64,000 bases of DNA. Origin: an uncultured Candidatus Saccharibacteria bacterium (lineage in GTDB: Bacteria > Patescibacteriota > Minisyncoccia > Phycocordibacterales > UBA1006). The stretch is taken from the NCBI GenBank assembly GCA_964350165.1, contig CAYGJA010000004.1:7638-71637 (forward strand), written 5' to 3'. Below the pieces are notes generated by a model, which saw only the letters and a list, made by a program, of their open reading frames with translations, had not been told where the DNA came from and did not search any database. The position numbers and the translations under genes were made by a program. Shown piece by piece: positions 4,689-43,662 of the stretch (position 1 is its first letter; each line of letters opens with the position of its first letter).

Positions 4689-5234
4689 ATGGACATGCCA
4701 AGCAAAAAGAAGTCAGAAAAAGTAAGGCAGCGCTTTTTGGCTGCGTATGATGCTCATGGCGATGACATTTTTGCTTTTGTAATGTCCCGAACAGGTAATC
4801 GAGACACGGCTCTTGATTTGACCCAAGATGTCTTTACTAGTACCTGGACGTACTTATCTCGAGGGAAACGCGTCAATAATTTGCGGGCTTTTTTGTTTCA
4901 AATTACAAGAAACAAAATCATAGATCACTATCGCAAGAAAAAGACAAATTCTCTGGATCATCTTATCGAGGCCGGCTTCGAAATGTCCGACTTGGGCAGA
5001 GCCATTGAGCAAATGCGATCACAAATTGATTCGGACTTTACGCTCCGATCCCTTTCTTCTTTGTCGCCCAGCCACTATCAGGTGATCCATATGCGTTTTG
5101 TAAAAGGTATGTCCGTGGATGATATGGCATTTGTGTTGGGTATTCAAAAAAACGCCGTTTCTGTGCGTCTCCATCGAGCTTTGGCTTATGCTCGTGAAAA
5201 TGTTATCGAAAAAGAAAATGAACAACGATTCTAA
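4689..5234 (+). CDS. ECF-subfamily RNA polymerase sigma-70 factor
   Basis: 181 aa; region 2 (DLTQDVFTSTWTYL) and region 4 HTH (MSVDDMAFVLGIQKNAVSVRLHRA) typical of sigma-24/ECF factors. Confidence 0.85.
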   Translation: MDMPSKKKSEKVRQRFLAAYDAHGDDIFAFVMSRTGNRDTALDLTQDVFTSTWTYLSRGKRVNNLRAFLFQITRNKIIDHYRKKKTNSLDHLIEAGFEMSDLGRAIEQMRSQIDSDFTLRSLSSLSPSHYQVIHMRFVKGMSVDDMAFVLGIQKNAVSVRLHRALAYARENVIEKENEQRF

Positions 5235-6471
5235 TTACAACAAAAAACTATCTCCAGAAGAAAAAGGAAAACTACGACAACAACTTGCTCGTACCACTTT
5301 TGATGTCCCCTATCAACCACGAAGTGGCTATCTTTTGCATGGTCTGGTAAAAAGCACCCTTTCAATTGCTCTCTTGGTGGCCTTTCCTGGCATAAGTATT
5401 TTATATGCAGCCGAAAAAGCCCTTCCCAATCAGGGGATTTTGTATGATTTGAAACGAGGAGGAGAAGAATTTATGATTAGTTTTTATACATCTCCAAATG
5501 ATCAAGTTGCTTTTCGCGAAACACAAATAAAACGAAGGGTTGAAGAAGCTACGCAGTTGGTGTTGCGTGGCTCTATGAACTCGGCACATGCTGACGTACT
5601 CAGCCGAGATATTGCTGCACATGTTGCTTCCGCTGAGGCCACTTTGCAGTACGCCCAAAACGATAAAGAAGAAGCCGTGCCAAAAGAATCAGTAAAACAA
5701 ATATTAGCAGTTCAACAAAAAGTACTAGCCGCTGTTGCTGAAACACAGCCCGAGGGGTCGAAAGATTCAATTACGGCCATTCAAGAAACTACCGCTGCTC
5801 TAGAAAATGGATTGCTTACAAAAAAAGACTTCTCCGAATCAACGGCCATGGGAGTAAAAAATGAAGCAAGTATTACAGAGCTGGAAATCGAAAAGTTGCT
5901 CGTTGTTGCCAGGCTAGAGGTAAAAAAAGCCATTCCAAAAACAAAAGAATTAGCTAGTTCGACCGAAGGTGTCGCTTCGGCTTCTCAAAAGGGTAAAGAA
6001 AAAAAGATCTTGGTGACTTCTGCTACTAACACTGCACCAATCTTGACGGTAACCACAGCAAGCTCCACCGCCACGAATAGTAGAATTATTTTGGGTGAAA
6101 CCAGAGAGCTGGCAGGCGCAGAAGAGGCTCTCGAGAATCTTCAAAATCGATTCGACATCCTCAAAACAAATGAAAAAGAAACAGCTTCTGATGATTCCCT
6201 CGGTTCCCTTTTGACCGATATCAAGGTATTTTTGGCGCTACTAGATTCAGACGTTTCTCTTGTGACTGGTTTTAGTTTTACTCAAACAGTCGACCCTGTG
6301 ACTCCTAACTCTCCGGTGGCTGCATCCAGTACAAATACCCAAGCAATCCTAGACCTACAAAAATCAGTACCGGCAACAACAACTTCCACCAAGGAAACCC
6401 TCCTGACTCCAAAGGAAGATTCACTTGTTGACTCATATTCGCCTGAGCCAATAGCGACTGATTTGAACTAG
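5218..6471 (+). CDS. Putative membrane-anchored anti-sigma factor / hypothetical Ala-Ser-Thr-rich protein
   Basis: ATG at 5218 overlaps the sigma stop codon by 17 nt. Short cytoplasmic N-terminus, one TM helix (LSIALLVAFPGISILYAA), then a long low-complexity extracytoplasmic region. Function inferred only from position downstream of an ECF sigma factor. Confidence 0.4.
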   Translation: MNNDSNYNKKLSPEEKGKLRQQLARTTFDVPYQPRSGYLLHGLVKSTLSIALLVAFPGISILYAAEKALPNQGILYDLKRGGEEFMISFYTSPNDQVAFRETQIKRRVEEATQLVLRGSMNSAHADVLSRDIAAHVASAEATLQYAQNDKEEAVPKESVKQILAVQQKVLAAVAETQPEGSKDSITAIQETTAALENGLLTKKDFSESTAMGVKNEASITELEIEKLLVVARLEVKKAIPKTKELASSTEGVASASQKGKEKKILVTSATNTAPILTVTTASSTATNSRIILGETRELAGAEEALENLQNRFDILKTNEKETASDDSLGSLLTDIKVFLALLDSDVSLVTGFSFTQTVDPVTPNSPVAASSTNTQAILDLQKSVPATTTSTKETLLTPKEDSLVDSYSPEPIATDLN

Positions 6472-7699
6472 TCGCCACTACTGTTAATTTCTCTGGAATC
6501 TCTATGGTTACCGCTCGTTTCGTTGTGGGTGCTTTCTTGGCCACAGAAACAATTACGGCAGAAGCAGGAACTGGTTCGTCTGGATTGATAGTGCTGGTTG
6601 CAATCTGATTATACTCGGCGCGTAATATCTGATTGTTGTCATAAAGCAACACTTGTTTGGGGGCTGATTCTGTTTTGAATGTAACTTGATTTTCACTTAA
6701 AAAAGAAAGTGGTGGTATCAATACAGAATTACCGTCGATATTCAACAGCCAATTAGATATATCGAGCATGAATTCTGTTTCTTGAGAAAGAAATATTTGA
6801 TCGGTTGTTGCCCTAATTGAAATCAAGGGCTCAACGACTTCGACTATTTGCGTTCCTTCGGCCAACAAGGCGTCGCTCCATGGATCTGATCGGAGCTCGT
6901 AGGCAATAAGATATTTTCCAGGATATTGGTATTGATGCGTTACGGGAGTAATTTTTCTTTCTGAATCATAAAAACGACCATCTCCAAAATTTATTCTAAG
7001 GTTTCCATAGAAAAGTCTTTGAGAACCTCGATAGAATTCCGGAAGTAAATTAATATTTTGACCTGTTATGACTTGTTCTGGCAGTGGTAGCTCAAATCTA
7101 TAGGGTGTTTGATTGATAATCGCAACGGGTTCTGTGCTTGCCTGAGTGGTCGTGGCCTGTTGAATTTCCGTTGTTGTAGTAGCAACTGGTTCCAGCGCTT
7201 CTGATTTAATAGGGCCAACATAGCTACCAGGCGTAGCTAGTTTGGTTATCCATACTGAGCCATTCCACTGGGCAGTTTCTTTGGTGTCGTTATCTCCGGA
7301 TGGCCAACCAGCGCTTCCACTAATGCTATCAACCGTCTGACTGCTGGCATCGAGAATGGTTAGTGTTTCCCCAGTATTTGCTAAGGCTCCCGAATAAATA
7401 AGAAAAGCTGTTCCCGCCGCGCTTTCATCGCTTGTTCGCTCGAGAACAACAGATTGGCCTGCCATAATAGTGCCTTCGAGGTCTATGGTTGGGCTGCCAT
7501 CAGTGGCTAGAATTTGCCAACCGGTTACGTCAACGCTGGCGGTACCAGTATTGGTAAGTTCTATCCATTCGTGGCTTGCTGAATCAGCGTCACCCATCCA
7601 GGCAATCTCGGTAAAGATAATTTTTGCTAGAGAAATATGGGGGAAAAGTATTCCCGTACAAATAAAAATTAAAAAAATGTAATCTCTAGTCTTCGTCAT
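6305..7699 (-). CDS. Lamin-tail-domain (LTD) surface protein with N-terminal signal peptide and C-terminal TM anchor
   Basis: Signal-like N-terminus MTKTRDYIFLIFICTGILFPHISLA; LTD-like block IIFTEIAWMGDADSASHEWIELTNTGTASVDVTGWQI; C-terminal WWKLLLPVLIFVGLGLLGYLYW helix. Start chosen at the internal Met (7699) to avoid overlap with the upstream gene. Confidence 0.55.
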   Translation of the reverse strand: MTKTRDYIFLIFICTGILFPHISLAKIIFTEIAWMGDADSASHEWIELTNTGTASVDVTGWQILATDGSPTIDLEGTIMAGQSVVLERTSDESAAGTAFLIYSGALANTGETLTILDASSQTVDSISGSAGWPSGDNDTKETAQWNGSVWITKLATPGSYVGPIKSEALEPVATTTTEIQQATTTQASTEPVAIINQTPYRFELPLPEQVITGQNINLLPEFYRGSQRLFYGNLRINFGDGRFYDSERKITPVTHQYQYPGKYLIAYELRSDPWSDALLAEGTQIVEVVEPLISIRATTDQIFLSQETEFMLDISNWLLNIDGNSVLIPPLSFLSENQVTFKTESAPKQVLLYDNNQILRAEYNQIATSTINPDEPVPASAVIVSVAKKAPTTKRAVTIEIPEKLTVVATSSNQSLLAQANMSQQVNLPLESGGFPWWKLLLPVLIFVGLGLLGYLYWMQPPES

Positions 7700-10076
7700 C
7701 AGCCAAAATTCGTTGGAGAAGGCCGGCGGGGACCTCTCGAGGTTTCCTTGGTTCTCTCTCTTCATTCGCTGCCACTCGTGTTTGTTCTTTTGGGGCGGTG
7801 GCCTCGATCGAGAGAGTGCTGGGAGTAGCTATTTTTTCAAGTTGATCTCCCCTGTTTTCGTTGTTCTTCTGTGTTGTTTCTGTGTCTGTGATTGTCTGAA
7901 CTGAATTTGCTTTTGCCAATGCTTGCCGCAAAGCAGACACCTTGTCTTGGCTGGCTTGTTTTTCTGGGTCAAATTTTGGTTTGTGTGGTTTTTTTGAAAT
8001 CAAAGATGCAGCTCTGGCTCGATAAGAGTCTTCGAGGTCAATAATCTCTTCTCTGGGGGCTTTGGCGGCAAGATCGGCCAACGAGATCGTTTTTTGAGGT
8101 TCTTTTTTTACTTGTGGTTGTTGTTCAGTTACAACCGACTCTTTTTTTGTAGAAAAATCAATATTACCCAAGGCGTCTTTTAAAAGCCCCTGAAGCCCCT
8201 CCCTGTCAGGCCCACTTCGAGTTTTTTCTTTTGGCGAAAAATCATTTCGAGGTGCTTGATTTTGCAAGGGTAAATCTTTTTTTACTTGTGGTTGTTGTTT
8301 GCTCACAAAATCTCGCTGGGGTGGTTTTTTTGAAATTTCTTTTGGTTTGTTAGCTGGTCTTGGTTTTTCTGTTGGTTTTGATTTTTCTACTAGTCTTTTT
8401 TTGAATTGAGAATGGTCCCCGGTTGGCTTTTGTGGGGAAGGCTCTTGTTTTTTCGGAATTTTTGCTGGCTTTGTGTCGCCCGCTGAAGGAGCAAATTCTA
8501 TTCCTAGAGCAGCCAGGTCTGCTTTGGATCCTTGTTTTATTTGCGGTTTGCCATTTTTATCATTATTCGTGATTGCTTTCTTTTCACCGCTTTTTATCTT
8601 TGCGATACAATCGTGGCAATAAACGGGGCGCCCGGGTTGCGGTTTGAAGGGTACCGTGGCGATATGCTCACAATCATCAAAAGAACAAGGCACCCTATAT
8701 TTGCCATCACTAGCCAATCCTTCGGCGTTAATCGGCGTTTTTGCGCTGCTTTCTCCCCCCTCTCCGGAACCATTACTCCATTTGGTAATTTCGGCTTCTA
8801 CGACAGCTCGAGGGCGGTGGTAGAGCTTGCGAGATCTCCCAATAATGTATTCTTCTACTTTTGGTTTTCGCTCTAGTTTTACAATGGCGGGAAGCGTTTT
8901 TGCAGAAAAAGGTCTGGTTGTCATACCATTAACCAGAAGCTTGAGGTATACGTGATAATTAGGAAGTGACACAAAATCGTCTGGCGTAAATTCTGGCATG
9001 AATTCTGTTTCGAGAAAGTCCGCATCTGCTGCGCCAACGCGACCGATGATCATGGTTCCCACGTTACCAAATACGGCATCGCGAACCACTGTATTATTCT
9101 CTGTCTCCAGCTGCGCCACGTATTGATGAGCAATGATTAGATTGAGACGATATTTGCGGGCCTCGGACAAAATAGTTGCAAAAGAGTCGGTGACAAAGTT
9201 TTGGAATTCATCCACGTACAGATAGAAATCCTTACGTAGGTGCTCGGCTATTTTTACACGCTCCATGGCGGCAAGCTGTAGTTTGGTAATCAACATAGCT
9301 CCAAGCAAGGCGGAGTTGTCTTCACCCACTCGCCCCTTGGACAAGTTCACCAAGAAAATCTTTTGCTTGTCCATTATGTCTGGAATATTGATAGTGCTGT
9401 TGGGTTGCCCCAGAATGTTTCTAATAATCGCACTAGAGAGAAATTGCCCGACCTTGTTCTGGATTGGAGCAATGGCTTCTTTTCGGTAGCGGTCTTCCCA
9501 GGCTTCGTATTCGTGAATCCAGAACGTACGCACCACCGGGTCTTTGATGTTGTTTACTATGGTTTGACGATAGTCCTTATCGACCAGTAAACGAGGAATT
9601 CCCAAAAGAGTCGTGCCCGGAGTGTCAATTAGGGCAAGGATGCAATTGTTCAGGATATATTCCATTCGAGAAGACCAGACGTTGGCCCAAATCTTGGTAA
9701 AAATTCCCATAATACCCGAAGCAACCAAGTGTTTGTAGCGGTCGTCATAGACTTCGAGAACATTAAAACCAACGTGATATTCGATATCCGAAGGATTAAA
9801 ATAAACTACATCGTCAAGGCGCTCTTTTGGAATCACACCCAATAAGTCTTCGACTAATTCTCCGTGCGGATCGACGATACAGACACCATCACCGTTTCTG
9901 ATATCCTGAAGAGCCATATTAGAAATCAGAGTAGATTTTCCCATCCCTGATTTTCCCAGGATATACATGTGTTGCCGGCGATCTTGTCGCTGGATACCAA
10001 AAATTTTTTCATTATTGCGATAGTGGGTCTTCGCAAAATAAATAATGTCTTTATTCTTTGGTAGCTCAACATTCAT
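7686..10076 (-). CDS. Soluble VirD4/TraD-like P-loop ATPase (type IV secretion system DNA-binding-domain family) with C-terminal zinc ribbon and Lys/Pro/Gln-rich disordered tail
   Basis: Walker A ILGKSGMGKST near residue 40, Walker B FYLYVDEFQNF, no N-terminal TM helices; CxxC...CxxC (CSFDDCEH...YCHDCIAK); about 330-aa low-complexity tail with QQPQVKK repeated twice. Confidence 0.5.
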   Translation of the reverse strand: MNVELPKNKDIIYFAKTHYRNNEKIFGIQRQDRRQHMYILGKSGMGKSTLISNMALQDIRNGDGVCIVDPHGELVEDLLGVIPKERLDDVVYFNPSDIEYHVGFNVLEVYDDRYKHLVASGIMGIFTKIWANVWSSRMEYILNNCILALIDTPGTTLLGIPRLLVDKDYRQTIVNNIKDPVVRTFWIHEYEAWEDRYRKEAIAPIQNKVGQFLSSAIIRNILGQPNSTINIPDIMDKQKIFLVNLSKGRVGEDNSALLGAMLITKLQLAAMERVKIAEHLRKDFYLYVDEFQNFVTDSFATILSEARKYRLNLIIAHQYVAQLETENNTVVRDAVFGNVGTMIIGRVGAADADFLETEFMPEFTPDDFVSLPNYHVYLKLLVNGMTTRPFSAKTLPAIVKLERKPKVEEYIIGRSRKLYHRPRAVVEAEITKWSNGSGEGGESSAKTPINAEGLASDGKYRVPCSFDDCEHIATVPFKPQPGRPVYCHDCIAKIKSGEKKAITNNDKNGKPQIKQGSKADLAALGIEFAPSAGDTKPAKIPKKQEPSPQKPTGDHSQFKKRLVEKSKPTEKPRPANKPKEISKKPPQRDFVSKQQPQVKKDLPLQNQAPRNDFSPKEKTRSGPDREGLQGLLKDALGNIDFSTKKESVVTEQQPQVKKEPQKTISLADLAAKAPREEIIDLEDSYRARAASLISKKPHKPKFDPEKQASQDKVSALRQALAKANSVQTITDTETTQKNNENRGDQLEKIATPSTLSIEATAPKEQTRVAANEEREPRKPREVPAGLLQRILADDED

Positions 10077-10111
10077 TACAAGTAGTATAGCTTATTTAAA
10101 ATGACACCCTG

Positions 10112-11461
10112 TTAGTAAATGTCAGATTCGGGTAGACCATATTGAGAATGCATGTATTCAACCAAATCTGAGCGTTCAATAGCATTGGGAACTGGTAAAA
10201 CCTCGAGGGTTTCGGCAGAAAAAGGAACGCTTAATTCTTCGTCGATCACAATACGACAGTACATTTGCCCGGGGCCAAGATTCTGTAAATCTCGAGAGTC
10301 AAAAACGGGTAGCATTTCGCTACGAAGTCGACTAGCGTCTTCACCAAATAGGCGAAAACAGAAAAAATTATCAGTACGAGCCAGCAATTGTTGAGTAGCA
10401 TCGCTGGTGATACTAAGGGTCGAATTCATAATAAGAGTAAAAGAAAGTCCGGTGGAGCGACTAGTACTAAGAAGTCCATGCAGAAGCTCGCTATCCAATC
10501 GAGGAAATTCATCAAGATAAAATGAGTAGTCTTTTCTCACTGCCTGAGTGTCTCGGGCGGGTCGGTTTTGGGCAAATTCCATAAAACGAGCCATGACCAA
10601 CGAGGCAAAAAAACCAGAAGCCGTCTCTCCCAAACGATCTGGCAAAAGTCTGATAAGAACTATTTTTTGTTCATCGATAAAAGATTCCATGGGCAAAGTA
10701 TCAAAAGTGTTTTGATAGATATCTTTGAGGCTCGGATGTGCAACCAAACTGCGAAGGATGTTTATTAGCGGCAGGATTGCGTCAGCTTCGTGTTTATTTT
10801 TCCAATTTGGATATTCTTCGCGCCAGAAATCAATCAGGGACTGGTCACTCAGTGTTTCGATCAGATCTGCGCGAATTTTTTCGTCTTTAAGAAATTCATA
10901 CGCCAGGTATAGACTGGGCTTGTCGCTATTCAGTATGGTTGCAAAAAGCGTGTGAGTCAGATGTTCTAATTGAGGATTCCATAAATTAGAATACATGCCC
11001 TGCAAGGTGCTTTCCATGATTCTAATCATGGGAAAAACAAAATCCTCAGAAATATCAGCCAGTGGATTGAGACGTATCCGAAGAGATGGATCCTGCGGGT
11101 CAAGAATAATTACATCTTTCAGTCTTGCTTCTGGAATATCTTTCATCAGTTCAGACACCAAGTCTCCTCGAAAATCAATCACACAAGCACCGTATCCATG
11201 AGCCAGGTCTTGACGAACCATGGCTTGGATAAATTTTGTCTTCCCCATACCAGGCCGACCAACAACCAAGGTGTTCCGACGACGGTCTCTGCGCCTGATA
11301 CCAAAGAGAAAGCGTTTTTGCTCGAGGGCCGCTTCGTAATTACTCCAAGCCACATACGAAACAAATTCTGGCTTTTCTCGACCGTACAGAGGCAGATTCT
11401 TGGGTGGTGGGGCCAGTTTTGAATCCTGAATTTTACTACTCTGGTCGCCCTGCTTATTCAT
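10112..11461 (-). CDS. Soluble VirD4/TraD-like P-loop ATPase, paralogue of the upstream gene
   Basis: Same domain order as 7686..10076: VVGRPGMGKTKF (Walker A), FYLDEFPRL (Walker B), conserved N-terminal RRxDRRxH/N motif (GIRRRDRRRNTLVVG vs GIQRQDRRQHMYILG). Confidence 0.5.
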   Translation of the reverse strand: MNKQGDQSSKIQDSKLAPPPKNLPLYGREKPEFVSYVAWSNYEAALEQKRFLFGIRRRDRRRNTLVVGRPGMGKTKFIQAMVRQDLAHGYGACVIDFRGDLVSELMKDIPEARLKDVIILDPQDPSLRIRLNPLADISEDFVFPMIRIMESTLQGMYSNLWNPQLEHLTHTLFATILNSDKPSLYLAYEFLKDEKIRADLIETLSDQSLIDFWREEYPNWKNKHEADAILPLINILRSLVAHPSLKDIYQNTFDTLPMESFIDEQKIVLIRLLPDRLGETASGFFASLVMARFMEFAQNRPARDTQAVRKDYSFYLDEFPRLDSELLHGLLSTSRSTGLSFTLIMNSTLSITSDATQQLLARTDNFFCFRLFGEDASRLRSEMLPVFDSRDLQNLGPGQMYCRIVIDEELSVPFSAETLEVLPVPNAIERSDLVEYMHSQYGLPESDIY

Positions 11462-12413
11462 TCGAGTCTGTTTTAGGGGTAGTAATTTGTCGCACCACTT
11501 GTTGTGGGAAAGGTATTTCTATCTCAGCCTCTTCGAAGGCAACTTTGATGCGGCGACGCAACTCTCCCGTTACTGACCATTGCTCTAGAGGTTTCGTCTC
11601 ACCCAGAATCTTTACGATAACAGCCGAATCTGCCAGCTCGTCAACACGCAAAAACTGAGGTGCCTGAATAATTTTGTCTTTCCATTCAGGGTCTTCAGCT
11701 AATTCAGTTCCTACACGATTGATTACTTTAATGGCTTCTTCCAGCTTTGTTTCGTAGCTTACGCCAACGTCTAAGTTTATCCTGGAGAAATCTTTGGACA
11801 TATTTGACGTGATTTTAATTTCTCCATTAGGAACATGGTGAACAACACCATCTAGATCCCGCAGAGTTGTGGCTCGCAGGTTGATGGCCTCAACAGCTCC
11901 GCAAGTTGCCCCAAAGCAAACCACGTCTCCTACGCGATACTGATTTTCAAAAACAATAAAAAATCCATTAATCAGGTCGCGAACCAGGTACTGTGCACCA
12001 AAGCCAAGCGCCACGCCAGCGATACCCGCTCCAGCCAAAAGGGGGCCTATGTTGATTGACAGTTCACCCAGAATCATGAGTCCGGCGACTACCCAGATCA
12101 CAACATTCAAGAGACCCTTAAAAAGCCCTATCAAAGTATCTTCTCTTTTTATCTCAGCGCTCTTGGTTAAAAAGATAGACCCAGGTACCGCACGCCTGAT
12201 GATTCGATCGATAAAACGTAGTGCGACGGTCTTTAGAAGTAGAGCCATCAAAAAAATAAAAAGAATCTTGAGTCCGTGTGTAAAGATCCAGGGCAAGATG
12301 GTTTCGGAAAGTAAATTATTTAAATCTTGGGTCGTAATAGCGATATTCATAACAAAACAAAAAGGTCTGTTACCGAGTAGTGCCTCTATTATACACTCCT
12401 TTGTCGACGCCAT
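11454..12413 (-). CDS. mscS: Small-conductance mechanosensitive channel (MscS family)
   Basis: TM helices followed by the conserved MscS pore/beta-domain region (GPLLAGAGIAGVALGFGAQYLVRDLINGFFIVFENQYRVGDVV). Alternative start at Met 12347 would remove the overlap with the upstream methyltransferase. Confidence 0.8.
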   Translation of the reverse strand: MASTKECIIEALLGNRPFCFVMNIAITTQDLNNLLSETILPWIFTHGLKILFIFLMALLLKTVALRFIDRIIRRAVPGSIFLTKSAEIKREDTLIGLFKGLLNVVIWVVAGLMILGELSINIGPLLAGAGIAGVALGFGAQYLVRDLINGFFIVFENQYRVGDVVCFGATCGAVEAINLRATTLRDLDGVVHHVPNGEIKITSNMSKDFSRINLDVGVSYETKLEEAIKVINRVGTELAEDPEWKDKIIQAPQFLRVDELADSAVIVKILGETKPLEQWSVTGELRRRIKVAFEEAEIEIPFPQQVVRQITTPKTDSNE

Positions 12414-13144
12414 TCGTACATGAGAAGGGCGGCACTTACCGAAGCATTCAACGACTCTACTTCTCGGTTCATCGGTATAGACAAAAGGAAATCACAAGCC
12501 TTCAGGGTGCTGTCTTTTAGTCCTACTCCTTCGTTGCCGACGATAAAGGCCATGGGGCTACCTGATAGTTGCGAATTACCTTCTATTGATTCTCCGTCCA
12601 TGGCTAGGCCAGCAATCCAATATTTTTGTTTTTTCAGAGCTTCGATGGTGTTGACGAGATTGCTCACCCGAGCAATGGGTACCCTTCCTACCGTACCAGC
12701 CGAAGTTTTGAATGAAGTGGCGTTCACTGGAGCCTGGCTGTGGTTAAGCATTACCAGGCCATCAACCCCAAGCGCGGTTGCACTTCGGATAATGGCTCCG
12801 ACATTGTGGGGATCCTCGATTTGTTCCATGATCAAAATAGCTGGATTCTCTGTTTTGATGTCGGCTAACATGTCGTCAAGACCAACATAATCAAAGGACT
12901 TCATTTTGATAACGACCCCCTGATGCTTTACTTGTCCCACATACTCACGCATGTTTTTTTCGGGCACTTGGCGAACGGTAACGCCTATTTTTCTGGCCAC
13001 GGTGGCTACTAGCGACAGATCTTCACTTTCGCCGGCTTTGCCCTGGAGAACATACATCTCGAGAATTCGTTCTGGTTGGTGAGTGAGGATTTCCTTGGCT
13101 ACGTTAATTCCGTAGACATAGAGTTTTGAATTTCTATTTTTCAT
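12389..13144 (-). CDS. SpoU/TrmH-family rRNA 2'-O-methyltransferase (RlmB-like)
   Basis: 251 aa; N-terminal L30e-like substrate-binding region plus SpoU methylase motifs (GNEGVGL, LSIPMNREVESLNASVSAALLMYE). Confidence 0.8.
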   Translation of the reverse strand: MKNRNSKLYVYGINVAKEILTHQPERILEMYVLQGKAGESEDLSLVATVARKIGVTVRQVPEKNMREYVGQVKHQGVVIKMKSFDYVGLDDMLADIKTENPAILIMEQIEDPHNVGAIIRSATALGVDGLVMLNHSQAPVNATSFKTSAGTVGRVPIARVSNLVNTIEALKKQKYWIAGLAMDGESIEGNSQLSGSPMAFIVGNEGVGLKDSTLKACDFLLSIPMNREVESLNASVSAALLMYEWRRQRSV

Positions 13145-13167: not shown

Positions 13168-13210
13168 CCAAAAAACAAGCGGAAATTGGTTTAGAAGAAC
13201 CAATTTCCGC
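13168..13210 (-). terminator. Rho-independent terminator of the 13221..13892 gene
   Basis: 11-bp perfect stem gcggaaattgg/ccaatttccgc with 8-nt loop, followed on the minus strand by TTGTTTTTTGG. Confidence 0.6.
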
Positions 13211-13220
13211 CGTCCAAGGC

Positions 13221-15933: not shown

Positions 15934-17250
15934 CTAGCCATCTATCCAATTGTTGTTGTTTTTTATAAGGGCTTCACCTATTAAATTTGTTTCACCAGCG
16001 CCAACCGTAAGTATTAAGCTATTTTTTTTAATATTAAGCCTTTCCAACAGATTCATGGTGTCATCGTGTGACTTTGTAGTGTGTACGACCAGATTGGGTA
16101 TGGCAAGGCGAATTTCTTCACAGAGCCTTTCGCTGGTAGTTGTTCCGTCCGGGATTTCTCGCGCTGGATAGATTGGCATTACTACAAGAGATTCGAGAGA
16201 TGGTATGTTTTTGAAGGATAAAATAAAATCATCAAACAAAGCTCTGGTGCGACTGTAAGTATGAGGCTGGAATATAAGTGTAATTTTCTTATTAGGAAAC
16301 ACCTTCACGACGCCGGCTAGAAGTGCTGAAATTTCTGTTGGGTGATGAGCGTAATCATCATACACTTTGGCGGCGCGGTATTTTCCTAAGTACTCAAAAC
16401 GTCGCCAAGTTCCGGTAAACTCTGATAGGGATTTGCGCGCTTTATTTTCGTCGATACCTAGTTGGTTTGCAATTGATAAGGCCAACTTTGCATTCGCCAA
16501 ATTGTAATCAGAAGGAAAGTGTAGTTTTGGATTAGTAAAATTATCATAAATATTTGCTTTTTTGACCCTAAGCTGATTTTTGGTAAAAATGTTCGTGAAT
16601 AATTTTCCATCAATTTGTAGTCTGGCTATAAACTCTTTAAAGGTATCTTCGAGATCCGTTAAGCTTTCGTAGCAATCAACATGATCGAGCTCTACATTGG
16701 TAATACCAATCATATAAGGCGAAAGAGATAGAAAATTACGCTTATATTCGTCGGCTTCCAGTAGTAAATACTGACTCTGTCCTTGAATGTAATTTGAGCC
16801 ATATTCGCGAATCAAGCTTCCCACGATTACCGTTGGGCTTAGACCAGCGTCAACCATTATTTTTGCCAACATAGCAGTTGTTGTTGTTTTACCGTGTGTG
16901 CCGGCAATGGCAATAGTCTTGTATTTTTTTGAAAGTTCCGTACGTACTTCTGGATAGGACATCAATTTTTCCTTATATCTTTGTTTTAAATCTGACAATA
17001 ATTTTGAAGCATAATTTTCAAGAGCAATTGTGTAAACCACTAAATCAACTTTGGCTGGAATTTGAGATATATCTTGCCCTTTTAAAAAACTAACTCCAAG
17101 GTATTCAAGTTCGCGTGTTATTCTTGATTCTGACAAATCAGAGCCAGAGACCCTTACTCCACGATTCAAGAACATCCGCGCAATTGCCGATACGCCAATT
17201 CCGCCAATTCCAAAAAAATGCACACTCTTAAGATTATCAAGATCTAGCAT
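15934..17250 (-). CDS. murC: UDP-N-acetylmuramate--L-alanine ligase
   Basis: N-terminal HFFGIGGIGVSAIARMFLNRGVRVSGSD and Mur-ligase P-loop AIAGTHGKTTTTAM; 438 aa. Confidence 0.9.
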   Translation of the reverse strand: MLDLDNLKSVHFFGIGGIGVSAIARMFLNRGVRVSGSDLSESRITRELEYLGVSFLKGQDISQIPAKVDLVVYTIALENYASKLLSDLKQRYKEKLMSYPEVRTELSKKYKTIAIAGTHGKTTTTAMLAKIMVDAGLSPTVIVGSLIREYGSNYIQGQSQYLLLEADEYKRNFLSLSPYMIGITNVELDHVDCYESLTDLEDTFKEFIARLQIDGKLFTNIFTKNQLRVKKANIYDNFTNPKLHFPSDYNLANAKLALSIANQLGIDENKARKSLSEFTGTWRRFEYLGKYRAAKVYDDYAHHPTEISALLAGVVKVFPNKKITLIFQPHTYSRTRALFDDFILSFKNIPSLESLVVMPIYPAREIPDGTTTSERLCEEIRLAIPNLVVHTTKSHDDTMNLLERLNIKKNSLILTVGAGETNLIGEALIKNNNNWIDG

Positions 17251-18586
17251 AAGTCTTGATTAAAGATATAAACTGGTCGTTTCGGTCGTATTCATTGGCA
17301 AACATTCCAAACGAAGCAAAAGCCGGACTGAATAATAGAGTGGATTGTTTCTGAATTGCCTCCGTAAGACCCAGCTGGACCGCTTGTGTAAATTCGGTAG
17401 CTAGAGTGTGGGAGATATTGGCTTTTTTTAGTAAGGGAAGCAGTTCGTCTGTTCCAGATCCAGGTATCAAGACTAGACCAGTTATATTGGTTGCTTGTTT
17501 TAGGTTATTAACCAGGCTATCAAGGCTTAGTTTTTTTGATGCACCGCCCAAGATAACAACTAATTTTTTCTCTGACAACGCCACTATCCCCGCTTCGGTA
17601 GCCGTCGGAGTAGTGGCGTTGTTGTCGTTATAAACAGGGCAAAGCAAGCCAGATATGGACATTTTTTCGAGTCGACCTTCAGGCCCGTGCAAATCCTTTA
17701 AAGCCTGCCTGGCAACACTATTTGATACTCCCAAGGATTTGGTTGCCAAAAGTGCACAGGCAGCATTTCTGCGGTTATGATCGCCAGGCATTCGAATTGT
17801 CCAATCGTTTGGCATTGTTTCGTTATTTGCTATCTGAGCATAATTAGGCAGAGGATAACCGTAATATCTAGCTAATTCTGGAATTGATTCTCCAACAATA
17901 AGGATATCTTTTTGTGTTTGATTTAAGTAAATAGAAGCTTTGTCTTTAAAGTAAAGCTGGCGATTGTTGCCGTAGTAATTTAAATGATCATCCATGAAGT
18001 TTGTAAAGACTGCGATGTGCGGACTCAAGCCACTATCTCGAAATCCTTGTAATTGCCATGAATCAAGTTCAAGAACAACATAATCGCCAGGCTTTACTAT
18101 GTCTAAAAGTGGCAAAGTGGCTGTTCCGCGAAGGTTGCCAGCAGTATAAACTTTTTTGCCAGCAGCTTTTAGTATTTCAGAAATCATTATCGTGGTTGTT
18201 GACTTTCCTCTTGTACCCGTGATTCCAATTATTATGACCCCTTCCGGTACAAGTTCCGCAAACCAGGAAGCATCCATTTTTATCGAGATTCCAGCTTGGT
18301 GAGAAAGTTTCAACAAAGGAGAATCAAGTGGCACTCCGGCTCCTTTTAAAATAAAATCAGTCTCTACAAAATCAACCTCTTTGTGCTCACCAAGTACAAA
18401 ATTTACCGGATGTAATCCTTCTGACTTATTGACAATTTCTATACTGTGACTCAATTCTAGCTGAGACTTTAGGTCTGTTATTGTTAGTTTGGCTCCTTTT
18501 TTCCTAATAAAGCAAGCGTCTTGTATGCCACGACCCAGTAATCCAAGACCCATTTGGGTTATTCTTTTGTTAAGAAAATGATTCAT
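17237..18586 (-). CDS. murD: UDP-N-acetylmuramoylalanine--D-glutamate ligase
   Basis: GITGTRGKSTTTIMISEIL P-loop; 449 aa; overlaps the murC start by 14 nt (operonic). Confidence 0.9.
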   Translation of the reverse strand: MNHFLNKRITQMGLGLLGRGIQDACFIRKKGAKLTITDLKSQLELSHSIEIVNKSEGLHPVNFVLGEHKEVDFVETDFILKGAGVPLDSPLLKLSHQAGISIKMDASWFAELVPEGVIIIGITGTRGKSTTTIMISEILKAAGKKVYTAGNLRGTATLPLLDIVKPGDYVVLELDSWQLQGFRDSGLSPHIAVFTNFMDDHLNYYGNNRQLYFKDKASIYLNQTQKDILIVGESIPELARYYGYPLPNYAQIANNETMPNDWTIRMPGDHNRRNAACALLATKSLGVSNSVARQALKDLHGPEGRLEKMSISGLLCPVYNDNNATTPTATEAGIVALSEKKLVVILGGASKKLSLDSLVNNLKQATNITGLVLIPGSGTDELLPLLKKANISHTLATEFTQAVQLGLTEAIQKQSTLLFSPAFASFGMFANEYDRNDQFISLIKTYARS

Positions 18587-26253: not shown

Positions 26254-27267
26254 ATGATTCTAGAGCACGTGAATCTCACCAACAAAAACACCCTCCACAC
26301 CCCCGCCCAAACCCGCTGGTTCATTTCGGTTGGGCCTGAGGGTTTTTCTTCTGAAGAACTAGAAATAATACGAAACCATCCAAGACTCTGCTTGGGTAGT
26401 GGTAGCAATACTTGTTTTGTTGGAGATTTTGAAGGAGTCATCATTTCTTCTTCCGATACAAGTATCCAAGTCAATGACAATTTAGTTACAGCTGGAGCCG
26501 GCTTGGATTGGGACGCCTTTGTGGCCGACACCCTTGATCGGGAATTATTTGGACTCGAAAATCTTTCTCTTATTCCGGGCACTGTTGGAGCTGCTCCTGT
26601 TCAAAATATTGGCGCCTACGGTGTAGAAGTTTCCGAAATGATACACCTTGTTCATGGAATAAATCTCCTCACCGGAAAATCAGAAACCCTCTCTCCTTTG
26701 GAATGTCAGTTTTCTTATCGCAACAGTATTTTTAAAACAAAACTACGCAATATTTTTTTGATTACGCAGGTAACGTTCACCCTCTCCTCAGAGCCGAACG
26801 TCAACACGAATTACACCGCACTCAACCAAGAATTGACCTTGCAAAAAATAAAAAATCCAACCCCACAACAAATTCGAGATACCGTTATTGCTGTTAGACA
26901 ATCAAAGCTCCCTGACTGGAAAACAGTCCCTAATGCTGGAAGTTTTTTCAAAAATCCAATTATTTCAGACGAGCAACTACAAGGGCTATTGCTGATGCAC
27001 CCAAGTATGCCTCATTGGGACAACCCTGACAGCAGTACAAAAATCCCAGCCGCCTGGCTTCTAGAAACCGCTGGCTGGAAAGGACGCTGGATTGGCAATG
27101 TTGGTTGCTATGAAAAACAACCCCTTGTTCTGGTGACCAACGGCCAAGCAACGGGCAACGAAATCGTTAACTTTGCTCATGATATTATTAATTCCATTAA
27201 AGAAGGCTTTGGAATTATTCTGGAGCCAGAGGTTAACATCATCAACCATGCAACCAAAATCACTTAG
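26254..27267 (+). CDS. murB: UDP-N-acetylenolpyruvoylglucosamine reductase
   Basis: FAD-binding LGSGSNTCF motif and MurB C-terminal domain; start placed at MILEHVNLTNKNTLHTPA. Confidence 0.8.
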   Translation: MILEHVNLTNKNTLHTPAQTRWFISVGPEGFSSEELEIIRNHPRLCLGSGSNTCFVGDFEGVIISSSDTSIQVNDNLVTAGAGLDWDAFVADTLDRELFGLENLSLIPGTVGAAPVQNIGAYGVEVSEMIHLVHGINLLTGKSETLSPLECQFSYRNSIFKTKLRNIFLITQVTFTLSSEPNVNTNYTALNQELTLQKIKNPTPQQIRDTVIAVRQSKLPDWKTVPNAGSFFKNPIISDEQLQGLLLMHPSMPHWDNPDSSTKIPAAWLLETAGWKGRWIGNVGCYEKQPLVLVTNGQATGNEIVNFAHDIINSIKEGFGIILEPEVNIINHATKIT

Positions 27268-28705
27268 CTATCTCCTAGACGAAGACCTCATTATTGACAT
27301 GCGCGGTGACGATAATCACGTTCACTCTTCGCTTTGTGATGACTCTCGCACGGTGGGCGTGGGAAGCGCCTTTGTGGCCACTCGGGGTACCGCGGTTGAT
27401 GGCCACAAATACATCGAACACGCCATCGATCGCGGTGCTACGGGTATTGTTTGCGAAGAATTTCCGGAGAAACTCCATGAACACATTACATATGTCTTAG
27501 TAAAAAACAGCCGCCACGCTCTAGGTATTGCCGCTGCCAGATTCTACGACGACCCTTCTCACGATATGAAAATTGTCGGCGTTACAGGAACCAACGGCAA
27601 AACAACCATTGCCACTTTGCTGTATCAGATCCTGAGCATGTCTGGCCATAAAACAGGCCTCATTTCAACAGTCGAAACTCGTATCGGCAACAAAGAAATT
27701 ACCCGTGGTGGTGCGGCCACTACTCCTGGTCCAATCATCCTCCAGAAAACGCTTTACGACATGCGTGCAGCCGGCTGTACCCATGTCTGCATGGAAGTCT
27801 CTTCTCATGCCATGGACCAACAACGAGTCGCAGGGATAGAATTCACTGGTGGAATTTTTAGCAATATTACTCATGATCATTTGGATTATCATGGCACCTT
27901 CGAAAACTACATCACTGCCAAACAATCCTTTTTCGATATGTTACCCGCCACGGCTTTTGCCATTGCGAACATCGACGACGAAAACGGTGCTTTTATCCTC
28001 CAGAACACCAAAGCCGCTACTTATTTTTATGGGCTTCATGCTAAATCTGATTTTGATTTAGATATTCATGATACTGATATTTCAGGCAGCAATATTAGTA
28101 TCAACGACCAGAATATTCACATCCCTCTGCCTGGTGCCTACAACGCCTATAATGCCGCAGCTGTATTTGGAGCAGCGGAGCTTTTGGATATTCCAATCGA
28201 CCGCATCGCCAAGCTACTCAGCAAAATAGTCCCCCCACCTGGTCGATTCGAGGTTTTACCTCATCGGCGTGGAATTTTTGGTGTTCTCGATTACGCTCAC
28301 ACTCCGGACGCTTTGGAGAACCTGCTCCAGACGGTTCGAGATTTAGCTGGTGAAAGAAAAATAATCACCGTAGTGGGTGCTGGTGGTGGTCGAGATGTTT
28401 CCAAGCGCTCTAGTATGGGCCGTATCGTAGCCGAAAAATCAGATATCTCCATCTTCACTTCGGACAACCCTCGCAACGAAGAACCCCTGGCAATTATCAA
28501 TGACTTGCGCTCGGGGCTGTATTTGGTTCCCGAGGCACAGGTGCTGGTAACCCCCGACCGAGATGAAGCCATTCGCCAAGCGGTAGAATTAGCAAAGCCT
28601 GGTGACATTGTGGTCCTAGCTGGCAAAGGCCACGAGCAATACCAAGAAGCCAAAGGTCAAAAAATCCCTTTTAGTGACAAAGAGATATTCTTGCGGGCTA
28701 AGTAA
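27248..28705 (+). CDS. murE: UDP-N-acetylmuramoyl-L-alanyl-D-glutamate--2,6-diaminopimelate ligase
   Basis: VGVTGTNGKTTIATLL P-loop and the MurE-specific DNPR motif (TSDNPRNEEP) near the C-terminus. Confidence 0.85.
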   Translation: MQPKSLSYLLDEDLIIDMRGDDNHVHSSLCDDSRTVGVGSAFVATRGTAVDGHKYIEHAIDRGATGIVCEEFPEKLHEHITYVLVKNSRHALGIAAARFYDDPSHDMKIVGVTGTNGKTTIATLLYQILSMSGHKTGLISTVETRIGNKEITRGGAATTPGPIILQKTLYDMRAAGCTHVCMEVSSHAMDQQRVAGIEFTGGIFSNITHDHLDYHGTFENYITAKQSFFDMLPATAFAIANIDDENGAFILQNTKAATYFYGLHAKSDFDLDIHDTDISGSNISINDQNIHIPLPGAYNAYNAAAVFGAAELLDIPIDRIAKLLSKIVPPPGRFEVLPHRRGIFGVLDYAHTPDALENLLQTVRDLAGERKIITVVGAGGGRDVSKRSSMGRIVAEKSDISIFTSDNPRNEEPLAIINDLRSGLYLVPEAQVLVTPDRDEAIRQAVELAKPGDIVVLAGKGHEQYQEAKGQKIPFSDKEIFLRAK

Positions 28706-30140
28706 AAAATTCTGGAATTTTCTTGGTGAGGCCGCTCAAATCGCCAGAAGTAATTAGCAATATTGCGCTATTGTTCCGGTCAGAGGTCGTGATTGCCTCA
28801 AGGCAGGCCTCTGGCGATGTGTGGAACTGGAGGACCCCTGGCGCGTTCTCCCCTCCTCGAATTCGCCGCTCCATTTCTGCTGGGCTGGTTTGGCCAGATA
28901 CGTCTTTACCATGATCAACTGGCGGCATCAGAATATGGGCTTCGTCAGTATCAGCAAAAACATCATCATACCAATGTGCCATGGCTGGATCACGCCAGCT
29001 GAAAGTATGCGGTTCGAACACCGCTACTATTTTTTTATTAGGAAAATGCAATCGAATTGCGTCTATTCCCGCTCGAGCCTTGGCGTATGACGAGCCATAG
29101 GTTTCGTAGACGGGAGTAGTAACATCGGGACTGTTTGTCTGCTCTAGGCGTCTTTTTACTCCAGCAAAACTAGCCACCCCGACCTGAATTTGCTCCAAAG
29201 AAAGCTCTGAAATCTCGGACAAAAGCGCTACCACCCCTAGGATATTTTGTAAATTATGCCGCCCCAATAGGCTGGTCTGGAATTCGCCAAACAATTTGCC
29301 TTTTTTTAAAATTTCAAAATAAGTCTGTTGGCCGTATCGAACGTTGCTAATCGTATAATCAGCCGACGTCACGACGCCATACGTCGCTAAGATTTTTTTT
29401 GCAGGAACCATCTCGACCGTGTGAGGATTGTCAGCGCAGGCCACCACACCACCGCTGTCTGGAAGCAAATCAAATAAATCGCGGAAAGGCTGCAAATAGC
29501 TATCCAGAGTTGGAAAAACATTTACATGATCATGCTCCCCCGAAGTAAACAAAACATACCGAGGTCGATACCAGAGAAATTTGGAACGATCATCAAAATT
29601 AGACGAGGGATATTCGTCTCCTTCTAATACAAAATCCGAACCAGCGCCAAGCCTCGCATTGTGTTCCATATTTTTGGGAAAAGCTCCTACAAAATAACTA
29701 GGGTCCCGGCCTGCCGAAATCAAAATGTGTGCCAACAATGCACTACAGGTGGATTTGCCATAACTACCAGCCACCACCAAATTGTTGGTGTCAACCAAAA
29801 ACAGTGACAACATCTCTGGAAAAGACACGACTTGGGTTGGGCCAGCGTCACGCAGACGAAAAGCTTCAGCCACTTCGGAGTTAGTCTCTGGAACAAGCTT
29901 GGAATGCTTGCCAATAACGACCACATCGACCCCCTCTGGAATATTGGCTGAATCGTGCGCAGTAAAAAATTCTTGCCCGTTATTTTTTAGATAACTAGCA
30001 ACCGGATCAAAAAAACCAGCATCAGATCCGGTCACTTCCCAGCCGGCTTCTCGGAGCATAATAGCCAAGGCGCTCATGCCTTTGCCACAAATACCAATCA
30101 CATGCACCTTTTTTGCTTTCGAAATTCTAGAAATATCCAT
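28698..30140 (-). CDS. MurC/Mpl-family ligase (murein peptide ligase-like second copy)
   Basis: N-terminus HVIGICGKGMSALAIMLREAGWEVTGSD; central GDEYPSSNFDDRSKFLWYRP closely resembles the Mpl/MurC DEYDxxFFDKRSKF block; 480 aa. A canonical murC is present elsewhere in the window. Confidence 0.6.
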   Translation of the reverse strand: MDISRISKAKKVHVIGICGKGMSALAIMLREAGWEVTGSDAGFFDPVASYLKNNGQEFFTAHDSANIPEGVDVVVIGKHSKLVPETNSEVAEAFRLRDAGPTQVVSFPEMLSLFLVDTNNLVVAGSYGKSTCSALLAHILISAGRDPSYFVGAFPKNMEHNARLGAGSDFVLEGDEYPSSNFDDRSKFLWYRPRYVLFTSGEHDHVNVFPTLDSYLQPFRDLFDLLPDSGGVVACADNPHTVEMVPAKKILATYGVVTSADYTISNVRYGQQTYFEILKKGKLFGEFQTSLLGRHNLQNILGVVALLSEISELSLEQIQVGVASFAGVKRRLEQTNSPDVTTPVYETYGSSYAKARAGIDAIRLHFPNKKIVAVFEPHTFSWRDPAMAHWYDDVFADTDEAHILMPPVDHGKDVSGQTSPAEMERRIRGGENAPGVLQFHTSPEACLEAITTSDRNNSAILLITSGDLSGLTKKIPEFFT

Positions 30141-41806: not shown

Positions 41807-42132
41807 TTACAACAACCACAAGCAGTCTTGAAAATCAGTCGCCATATGAAACAACAACCCAACAGCTATGATTCGCACGTATTTGTTTGGGTACAAAAGA
41901 AGCAAAAAATAAAAAGCAATAGCGTATCCAGAGTGCAATGGATGAAAACCAATACTACAGCGAGCAGGGTCAAATATTGGTCGAGCCAACAAATGATCCA
42001 GATCAACTAGCATGGTCCCAATCATAATCAGCCATCCTTTTTTCCAAATATCCCTAAATAAAAACCAGGCCAGAAGACCAGGTGCCAAAAAATGTAGACT
42101 GTAGTGCACCAGGCTTCTGGTAATTTCCATGA
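41807..42132 (-). CDS. Small membrane protein, hypothetical (about 108 aa)
   Basis: Start moved to the internal Met MEITRSLVHYSLHFLAPGLLAWFLF so it does not overlap the divergent gene; the longer ORF to 42376 is unlikely. Confidence 0.35.
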
Positions 42133-42155
42133 AAAAATCATAGCACAATCTATCT

Positions 42156-43103: not shown

Positions 43104-43109
43104 GGCTTC

Positions 43110-43619: not shown

Positions 43620-43662
43620 GTAATTATTTAGAAAGATAACTTAAGGCACTTTTGATGCCACA

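Follow-up and report, generated by a model that had tools for sequence, protein, structure and literature searches.

Soluble relatives of type IV coupling protein ATPases in Patescibacteria: a conserved chromosomal pair with a possible housekeeping role

Introduction

A 64-kb stretch of the genome of an uncultured Candidatus Saccharibacteria bacterium (contig CAYGJA010000004.1, positions 7,638 to 71,637; called the window here, and the frame for all coordinates) carries two adjacent genes, A and B, that encode soluble P-loop proteins resembling the type IV coupling proteins (T4CPs) of conjugation systems. Nearly all Patescibacteria carry this pair, on the chromosome and away from conjugation or virB4 loci, and the ATPase core of B is constrained at the level of DnaK (Hsp70). 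We favour, tentatively and at somewhat less than an even chance, the view that A and B are a soluble ATPase pair of the T4CP lineage that has been exapted as a cytoplasmic housekeeping translocase, and that the genes for a lamin-tail domain (LTD) surface protein and an MscS channel on either side of the pair are incidental to it.

A first-pass annotation of the window had described A and B as adjacent, same-strand paralogues of 449 and 796 aa with a VirD4/TraD/TrwB-type core and no membrane anchor. It had also joined them with the LTD protein and the MscS channel in a dedicated machine for handling DNA at the cell envelope. The description of the two genes has held up well. The proposed machine has not, since MscS is found in none of 80 related loci and LTD in 12.

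Domains, motifs and fold of gene B

B matches four Pfam models above their cut-offs, TrwB_AAD_bind (PF10412), zf_Tbcl_2, DUF87 (32 bits) and TraG-D_C (PF12696). TrwB_AAD_bind is passed by both proteins, with 27.7 bits for A and 39.0 bits for B (gathering cut-off 20.5), and PF02534 is at or above its cut-off in both. The model searches that the first-pass annotation had suggested as a check do not place A and B in an unrelated family. The two proteins share 25% identity across 388 aa (BLASTP, E 6e-50). This similarity is far beyond chance, and by their sequences A and B are paralogues.

Walker A and Walker B motifs are present in both proteins, as had been reported (Walker A reads GRPGMGKT in A and GKSGMGKS in B). 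In an alignment of homologues G41, G46 and K47 of the B Walker A are invariant, as is E290 of Walker B, and D289 is nearly so. An RRxDRR motif ahead of the P-loop had been ascribed to both proteins. It is found literally in A, in the sequence FGIRRRDRRRN, but B has RQDRR, in FGIQRQDRRQH, and the consensus of the family is [KR]RxDRR. The catalytic motif set, consisting of Walker A, Walker B and the Arg and Gln that come after Walker B, is complete in B and in canonical members of the short paralogue family to which A belongs, called 'a' here. It is incomplete in the A protein of the window.

Residues 1-500 of B were modelled with AlphaFold (AF2) from a 50-sequence alignment, and the model has a mean predicted local distance difference test (pLDDT) value of 91.5. 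The top 8 Foldseek matches of the model are all TrwB (1e9s/1e9r/1gki, E 1e-13), with template modelling (TM) scores over ~420 columns of 0.54 when normalised on B and 0.65 when normalised on TrwB. The next matches are HerA, Cag-beta, DotL, VirB4 and the C-domain of DndH. When the family profile is searched against PDB sequences, TrwB (4e-12) and DotL (1.6e-8) are the best solved relatives. A helical bundle at aa 112-236 of the model lies at the site of the all-alpha domain of TrwB, and A aligns to B across this region (BLASTP). The T4CP-type core claimed for both proteins is borne out by the Pfam and NCBIfam models, the PDB profile search, and AF2 with Foldseek. No hydrophobic segment, defined as a 19-residue Kyte-Doolittle window scoring >= 1.6, is found in A, in B or in any of 80 B homologues, in keeping with the claim that a membrane anchor is lacking; 7 of 45 'a' homologues have one. 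According to the model, B carries a complete TrwB-type nucleotide-binding domain with its all-alpha domain and without a membrane anchor.

The core of B is followed by a zinc ribbon that scores 35.7 bits in Pfam (cut-off 27) and 37.5 in NCBIfam (cut-off 36). All four Cys residues of the ribbon are conserved in an alignment of 20 homologues. Small proteins of M. mazei that carry the CxxC-x17-CxxC domain have been found to bind zinc experimentally (PMC12704099). In the lineage of the window the first Cys pair of the ribbon (8607-8624) is Cx4C, CSFDDC, where the family has CxxC; this two-residue insertion is common to P0004 and P0006. The long tail beyond the ribbon evolves fast except at a few short conserved islands, with a rate of nonsynonymous substitution (dN) of 0.378 relative to the orthologue in the related locus L083.

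Gene A, a diverged copy of the short paralogue

Judged by its sequence, A represents the short paralogue 'a' in the lineage of the window, in a strongly diverged form. It shares 33% identity with the canonical 'a' of any clade, where 'a' proteins of different clades normally share 60-72%. B of the window is 67-69% identical to B of other clades, which is the divergence expected for a separate clade. Only 31 homologues of A are detectable, and their identity falls quickly.

For a comparison of motifs, A and the six proteins most closely related to it were aligned with 45 'a' and 40 B sequences. A and the six relatives keep Walker A (GRPGMGKT) and the Asp-Glu of Walker B. The EARKY(R/G)...AHQY motif is gone in this lineage and reads TSRSTG...MNST, with Met-Asn in place of His-Gln, and the DPHG and GNxG motifs are lost as well. 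The Arg of the EARKY motif is also missing in the A-clade members P0123-P0127. All three motifs are retained in canonical 'a' and in B, and partly, His-Gln included, in an actinobacterial homologue. By analogy with RecA-like ATPases, A has probably given up efficient hydrolysis.

A appears to be under purifying selection still, because its dN against the L083 orthologue (0.082) resembles those of MscS (0.068) and of the SpoU-type methyltransferase encoded upstream (0.052) and is far below that of the LTD protein (0.376). The value for the B core is 0.030. Synonymous sites are saturated in this comparison and dN/dS values are rough. A decaying pseudogene was considered and rejected, given the intact reading frame in seven members of the lineage and the dN near those of MscS and SpoU.

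Distribution and conservation

More than 8000 homologues of B are found in the database, and the best 120 share 66-100% identity with B. The annotated ones come from Nomurabacteria, Paceibacteria, Minisyncoccia and similar Patescibacteria. B is present in more than 588 species by a pattern scan of species-representative genomes, which is a lower bound. A 2025 survey by Quinonero-Coronel et al. (PMC12102498) counts 5,713 VirD4-like genes and finds them in 2,918 of the 3,035 genomes of Patescibacteria covered. Of these genes, 148 are near virB4; VirB4 is present in 2,417 of the 3,035 genomes, and there are 109 relaxases in the whole phylum. The VirD4-like genes of the survey, about two per genome, are almost certainly the same genes as the A and B families.

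Conservation was measured over one set of 14 species, each of which has all four of dnaK, B, 'a' and dnaJ. The mean pairwise identity is 89.2% for the B core, 86.0% for 'a' and 85.3% for DnaK, compared with 77.0% for DnaJ, 73.0% for GrpE, 74.0% for ribosomal protein S9 and 70.8% for L13. The B core is constrained at the level of DnaK. The known conjugative coupling proteins are typically far less conserved than this.

Proposed role of the pair

How might a soluble T4CP-like pair work in the cytoplasm? B would assemble into a ring ATPase like TrwB and its relatives, and the ring would thread or remodel a polymer. Nucleic acid is favoured over protein as this polymer because of the precedent of the family and because of the zinc ribbon; by the same precedent DNA handling by A and B is possible. 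The ribbon and the tail motifs may recruit partners or the substrate, as the tails of TraD and DotL do. A would bind nucleotide and hydrolyse it poorly, and would act as a non-catalytic partner or regulator of B and not as a second motor. The housekeeping job would have been taken over from conjugation and would now be independent of it. The LTD protein and MscS would be co-transcribed neighbours in a compact genome that stand outside the machine.

A near-universal pair that is conserved like Hsp70 should do something central. Much of the diversity of bacteria belongs to Patescibacteria, whose genomes are very small. An exapted, soluble coupling-protein motor, if true, would be a case in which an ATPase of conjugation was drawn into the core biology of the cell. 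It might also close a gap in DNA or protein handling by epibionts that depend on others for nucleotides. The question is testable since Saccharibacteria are genetically tractable, and the transposon sequencing (Tn-seq) table discussed below has one essential and one dispensable T4CP-like gene.

Genomic contexts and alternative roles

The surroundings of the pair were examined in 80 related loci and, besides these, in the relatives L081, L082 and L083. In 50 of the 80 loci the short paralogue 'a', with ~440-540 aa, is encoded no more than 8 kb from B. Full-length 'a' is on the strand of B in 43 of 45 copies and less than 100 nt from B in 9. The loci fall into three contexts that correspond to three parts of the B tree, and only 'a' and an unannotated gene, c1, recur across all three. 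The recurrent neighbour families are housekeeping genes or unannotated, and no virB4 is present among those examined. Outside the clade with LTD the gene after B is 'a', c1, efp on the opposite strand, or trmD.

The c1 gene encodes a cysteine-rich protein of ~570 aa and is present in 117 copies in 45 of the 80 loci, in tandem arrays of up to six. It adjoins B or 'a' directly, with a median gap of 7 nt from B to c1. The protein has an N-terminal CxxC...CPxCR ribbon, a Cys-rich repeat core and a C-terminal CxxC-x17-CxxC ribbon like that of B. Examples are L082:5210-6961, L023:14610-16331 and the array between B and 'a' in L013. More than 7000 homologues are known, all called 'hypothetical'. No Pfam, NCBIfam, PADLOC or PHROG family other than the zinc ribbon is found in c1, and its AF2 model (pLDDT 80) has no fold match in the PDB better than E 2.6. 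It is possible, if rather unlikely, that B, 'a' and c1 together make up a cytoplasmic machine that is found throughout Patescibacteria and is independent of the type IV secretion system (T4SS), a housekeeping translocase of essential grade whose short subunit is non-catalytic in the window. Such a machine could be a DNA-import motor in bacteria with no listed ComFA, or a remodeller of nucleic acid or protein that is co-expressed with DnaK and DnaJ.

The first context belongs to the largest clade and has the order grpE, a PaaX-like gene, dnaK, B, variable genes including one or more c1, 'a' and dnaJ. Here B has dnaK directly upstream in 19 loci, at a median gap of 79 nt, and 'a' is directly followed by dnaJ, also in 19 loci, at a median gap of 36 nt. 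This order would fit a pair that works with DnaK, DnaJ and GrpE as a protein unfoldase or remodeller, as would the conservation equal to that of DnaK and the general ability of T4CPs to handle unfolded protein substrates. We regard such a role as quite improbable: the dnaK context is limited to one cluster of the B tree and is found neither in the window nor in the other two contexts, and housekeeping genes of CPR (candidate phyla radiation) genomes are often syntenic without a functional link.

In the second context secDF is followed by a sigma-r4/HARE-HTH gene (c13), by c9, c24, 'a' and B, and then by efp, mnmA and comEC. The presence of comEC within 8 kb of B in 17 of the 80 loci brings to mind natural transformation, in which the pair would pull single-stranded DNA through ComEC in the way ComFA does in Firmicutes. 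T4CPs and their FtsK and HerA relatives are DNA-dependent translocases, and ComFA also has a zinc ribbon. The competence core given for CPR bacteria comprises ComEC, ComFC and DprA and leaves out ComFA (PMC10633639). SEML1_0293, a T4CP-like gene of S. epibionticum ML1, is non-essential, as are the com genes. In the loci themselves, however, comEC never adjoins B; efp on the opposite strand and mnmA come between, in one clade, and the window has no comEC. Conservation at the Hsp70 level is unexpected for a competence accessory, and A and B are not related in sequence to the DEAD-box helicase ComFA; neither protein is matched by a DEAD-box or ComFA model in Pfam or NCBIfam. A transformation motor is improbable on this balance.

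The third context is 'a', further genes, B and LTD, and is found in 12 loci that form one cluster of the B tree. By synteny the window groups with it. The window has no c1 gene, and neither dnaK nor a further T4CP-like gene was found in its 64 kb.

The c9 and c24 genes of the second context encode unannotated membrane proteins, c9 of ~457 aa with an N-terminal transmembrane segment and c24 of ~180 aa. They directly precede 'a' in 15 loci, with median gaps of 3-8 nt, and are themselves preceded by the sigma-r4/HARE-HTH gene. The group comprises loci L048-L079 (for example c9 at L053:1276-2649 and c24 at L048:2135-2674) and is one clade in the sample. Together with the sigma/HARE-HTH gene directly ahead of SEML1_0293 in S. 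epibionticum, this arrangement suggests that a membrane module and the ATPase were fused or split apart, although no sequence similarity was found. As to the more specific idea that c9 is the detached N-terminal domain of longer T4CP-like proteins, which comes from synteny, BLAST shows no similarity to the 700-aa homologues.

The T4SS as an alternative employer of the pair

A and B could instead be true coupling proteins of the chromosomal T4SS of Patescibacteria that recruit protein or DNA substrates, pass them to VirB4 and VirB6 and are held by separate membrane tethers. This alternative, the first in rank of those considered, is unlikely in our view. The sequence and fold of A and B are of the T4CP type. 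The membrane proteins c9 and c24 in front of 'a' could be such tethers, and the c1 arrays could provide substrates or adaptors. Separation of T4CP genes from virB4 is frequent, and the T4CP-like genes and VirB4 are both near-universal in the phylum (PMC12102498).

Work on S. epibionticum ML1 bears on both sides of the question. In the Tn-seq study of Wang et al. 2023 (PMC10633639) SEML1_0142 (1019 aa, with a TraM-recognition domain) was scored essential and SEML1_0293 (921 aa) non-essential, while the T4SS and FtsK are essential and a ComF-family protein but no ComFA is listed. The essentiality of SEML1_0142, like that of the T4SS, would suit a coupling protein. A sigma/HARE-HTH gene precedes SEML1_0293 just as c13 precedes c9, c24 and 'a', from which a fused membrane or N-terminal module can be inferred. 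The non-essential SEML1_0293, on the other hand, does not fit service to an essential T4SS. The survey has raised exaptation of the T4CP homologue for the reason that it is non-essential in S. epibionticum (PMC12102498). The survey names only the non-essential t4cp homologue, while the Tn-seq tables (PMC10633639) list two genes.

Other evidence against a coupling role in the T4SS is the lack of a membrane segment in 80 of 80 B homologues, the DnaK-like conservation, which is unlike that of the known conjugative T4CPs, and the small number of genes near virB4 (148 of 5,713; PMC12102498). In addition c9 and c24 are limited to one sampled clade, and virB4 is not among the recurrent neighbour families examined.

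Several of these observations nevertheless weigh against the exapted housekeeping translocase that we favour. Conservation at the DnaK level and a chromosomal site are compatible with service to a near-universal chromosomal T4SS (VirB4 in 2,417 of 3,035 genomes), and so is the frequent separation of T4CP genes from virB4. The position of c9 and c24 directly upstream of 'a' in one clade fits a classical, membrane-tethered coupling protein. The site between dnaK and dnaJ (19-28 loci) could indicate a protein substrate. Ring formation, the substrate and any contact between A and B are all inferred, and the lost motifs of A are read by analogy with RecA-like ATPases.

The LTD and MscS neighbours

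The LTD protein starts at 7699 and not at 7765, and its 464-aa form is an exact match to a called public protein. The start at 7699 is almost certainly the real one because of this exact entry and because it supplies an n-region and a hydrophobic signal peptide. With the start so corrected, the signal peptide, lamin-tail domain and C-terminal anchor described in the first-pass annotation are all there. The middle of the protein consists of a Thr-rich linker and a PKD-like region, with PKD matches in homologues. No hydrolase, nuclease or other catalytic domain was detected with Pfam. The protein is 55% identical to the orthologue whose B core is 95% identical, and by dN it evolves about 12 times faster than the B core.

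LTD follows B in 12 of the 80 loci, all in a single B-tree cluster, and also in the lineage of the window and in L082; in all 12 loci the junction between B and LTD is 3-49 nt. No MscS homologue was found in any of the 80 loci by phmmer with the MscS of the window. MscS is beside A and B only in L081 and L083, relatives whose B proteins share 83-95% identity with B of the window and whose whole neighbourhood is syntenic (spoU, mscS, A, B, LTD, DUF5667, sigma, P-type ATPase). In L082, with B at 68% identity, the order is 'a', further genes, cutA, c1, B and LTD, without MscS. Synteny in the 80 loci and in L081, L082 and L083 thus shows that LTD is linked to the pair in a clade-specific way and that the link to MscS is very recent. 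MscS as a conserved partner was rejected, as only near-identical neighbourhoods keep it, and LTD as a universal partner was rejected as clade-restricted.

An envelope apparatus for DNA uptake or export made up of the ATPase pair, LTD and MscS is thus largely refuted by synteny, and we consider it very improbable; the conserved ATPase-LTD linkage that had been proposed as a check is largely lacking. The five genes of the window do overlap or lie 35 nt apart after a terminator, the B-LTD junction is tight wherever it is found, and LTD domains accompany membrane-associated hydrolases. Tight junctions are, however, common to every gene pair examined in these genomes, and the LTD protein lacks a catalytic domain and changes far faster than the B core. 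For annotation this is a caution against counting LTD and MscS, as neighbours of the pair, among the components of a system.

Two plus-strand genes run towards LTD, one for an extracytoplasmic function (ECF) sigma factor (4689-5234) and the other for a membrane protein with DUF5667 (5119-6471). The reading frame of the latter overlaps the 3' end of LTD by 167 nt on the opposite strand (6305-6471), and the order sigma, DUF5667, LTD is kept in L081, L082 and L083. This pair may be a better candidate than the ATPases for a regulator of the LTD protein.

Layout of the locus and other features of the window

The open reading frames (ORFs) were taken from a six-frame listing, which gives spoU, mscS, A, B and LTD as five minus-strand genes arranged head to tail (Table 1). 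SpoU and MscS overlap by 25 nt and MscS and the start of A by 8 nt, the latter as first reported; A and B are separated by 35 nt, and B and LTD overlap by 14 nt. The five genes are probably one transcription unit because their junctions are tight and a terminator-like hairpin is located upstream of spoU, which likely marks the start of the unit. A promoter scan found nothing enriched above shuffled sequence. The GC content of the A/B region is unremarkable.

Table 1. Positions of the genes, domains and motifs of the locus in the window
Feature	Position	Strand	Basis or remark
Terminator-like hairpin, 14-bp stem and T run	13178-13211	-	just upstream of spoU
SpoU-type RNA 2'-O-methyltransferase	12389-13144	-	Pfam; likely first gene of the transcription unit
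MscS-type mechanosensitive channel	11454-12413	-	three MscS Pfam domains
Gene A, 449 aa, soluble T4CP-like P-loop protein	10112-11461	-	Pfam TrwB_AAD_bind
A N-terminal KLAPPPKNLP	11390-11419	-	matches 'a' family consensus KyaPPPpeLP
A Walker A GRPGMGKT, aa 68-75, intact	11237-11260	-	alignment
A Walker B SFYLDEF, Asp-Glu kept	10505-10525	-	alignment
A degenerate segment TSRSTGLSFTLIMNST where the family has EARKY(R/G)...AHQY	10418-10465	-	alignment
Gene B, 796 aa, soluble T4CP-like ATPase with zinc ribbon and long disordered tail	7686-10076	-	Pfam
B ATPase core, ~aa 26-435, predicted RecA-like nucleotide-binding domain with inserted all-alpha domain (helices aa 112-236)	8772-10001	-	AF2, Foldseek
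B Walker A GKSGMGKS, aa 41-48	9933-9956	-	G41, G46, K47 invariant in homologue alignment
B Walker B FYLYVDEF	9204-9227	-	E290 invariant, D289 nearly so in homologue alignment
B EARKYRLNLIIAHQY motif, conserved Arg and His-Gln, aligned to TrwB RKAGLRVVAGLQ	9120-9164	-	alignment
B zinc ribbon CSFDDC-x17-CHDC, aa 464-490 (zf_Tbcl_2 / TIGR04272 CxxC-x17-CxxC)	8607-8687	-	Pfam, NCBIfam
B tail, aa 501-796, K/A/P/Q/E-rich, predicted disordered	7689-8576	-	composition, alignment of 20 homologues
B tail island LGIEF	8493-8516	-	alignment of 20 homologues
B tail island ISLxxL	8061-8090	-	alignment of 20 homologues
B tail island ASxxKxSALRxALAKA	7908-7955	-	family form ASxExxSxLKxxIxKA
B C-terminal island REVPAGLLQRILADDED	7689-7739	-	family form (K/R)EVPxxxLxxILE
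LTD surface protein, 464 aa	6305-7699	-	Pfam LTD
LTD signal peptide	7622-7699	-	hydrophobic segment aa 6-30
Lamin-tail domain	~7319-7627	-	Pfam LTD 47.3 bits (cut-off 34.3), E 3e-12
LTD C-terminal membrane anchor	6320-6400	-	hydrophobic segment aa 434-460

The remainder of the window is ordinary chromosome with Mur ligases, a LeuRS-type synthetase, LepA, MurJ and six tRNAs. No VirB4 or relaxase is present among its ten largest other ORFs. Four genes of the Mur-ligase family are found as two pairs within 15 kb (15934-18586 and 27173-30140), which is notable for a reduced genome. Positions 42000-51700 have a low GC content, 0.35-0.40 compared with ~0.45. Inside this stretch are a 672-aa AAA_15/AAA_21 ATPase (44347-46365) and a 1142-aa Peptidase_S74 protein (endosialidase or tail-fibre chaperone; 48112-51540), with a tRNA-Glu between the two genes (47990-48064) and a tRNA-Val just past the latter (51632-51706). 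The stretch may be an integrated element or an island of defence or phage origin.

Relation to earlier descriptions

The gene family is already known from the 2025 survey, which in its available part gives counts only (PMC12102498). A literature search, with many subscription papers outside its reach, did not find the split into long and short paralogues or a T4CP-like protein with a CxxC-x17-CxxC tail. Nor did it find descriptions of a soluble architecture with a zinc-ribbon tail, of conservation as extreme as this, of the genomic contexts, dnaK-dnaJ and c1 among them, or of the degenerate A.

Comparison with known systems

Among solved structures TrwB of plasmid R388 (1e9r, 1e9s, 1gki) is the best match of B in both sequence and fold. 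The two proteins have in common the Walker A, Walker B and Arg...Gln motifs and the all-alpha domain inside the nucleotide-binding domain. Unlike A and B, TrwB carries a transmembrane domain at its N-terminus; its crystallised form is without the first 70 residues. TrwB is plasmid-borne and tied to a relaxase and a T4SS, and A and B are chromosomal and sit amid housekeeping genes. The identity between TrwB and B is only ~14%, and the zinc ribbon and the 300-aa tail are additions of B.

DotL/IcmO of the Legionella Dot/Icm system and TraD of the F plasmid, like B, join a T4CP core to a long C-terminal extension. In DotL and TraD this extension recruits adaptors or the relaxosome. The extension of B has conserved short motifs and an acidic-hydrophobic end, and the tail is not homologous to those of DotL and TraD. 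B further differs in being soluble, in having a zinc ribbon in its tail and in having no adaptor homologues nearby.

A few soluble T4CPs use a separate membrane partner, for example TraJ of pIP501. Because such proteins exist, the missing membrane domain weakens the membership of A and B among the T4CPs and still allows a similar mode of action. A and B are T4CP-like and not coupling proteins proper, as both the membrane domain and the linkage to a T4SS or relaxase are lacking.

S. epibionticum has two T4CP-like or TraG-D_C P-loop proteins away from its T4SS locus, possible counterparts of A and B. SEML1_0293 comes directly after the sigma/HARE-HTH gene, as do c9, c24 and 'a' in one Paceibacteria-type clade. 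SEML1_0142 and SEML1_0293 have an N-terminal extension of ~380-400 aa before the ATPase, while the Walker A of B is already at aa 41.

HerA (4d2i, 9x1m) is a soluble hexamer of the same FtsK-HerA superfamily and the second-best fold match of B (E 7e-13). Its TM score is only 0.44-0.47, there is no NurA-like partner gene, and B has the all-alpha domain of the TrwB type. With Walker A starting at aa 41, B also has no room for the N-terminal barrel of HerA. The FtsK_SpoIIIE model is below threshold in A (E 0.088) and has no match in B. Replacement of FtsK was considered and is unlikely, as no FtsK model matches and S. epibionticum has a true, essential FtsK. PADLOC returned distant P-loop matches only (mad8 1.8e-15; DndH and HerA weak), with no defence partner genes nearby. 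A defence system or a mobile element was rejected on the PADLOC result, the unremarkable GC content and the vertical, near-universal distribution.

The strongest profile match of both proteins is phrog_5156 (1.6e-58 for B and 1.9e-29 for A), a family of Bacillus phages that include SPO1-like phages, CP-51 and phage G. Members from 41 phage records, of which 36 belong to Bacillus phages, share 22-26% identity with B over ~80-90% of its core; among the records are NC_023719.1 (Bacillus phage G gp156), NC_025423.1 (CP-51) and MW001214.1 (SP8). These unannotated proteins of ~820 aa differ from B in having ~380 extra N-terminal residues and no zinc-ribbon tail. The T4CP-like branch to which B belongs has a non-conjugative life in large Bacillus phages as well.

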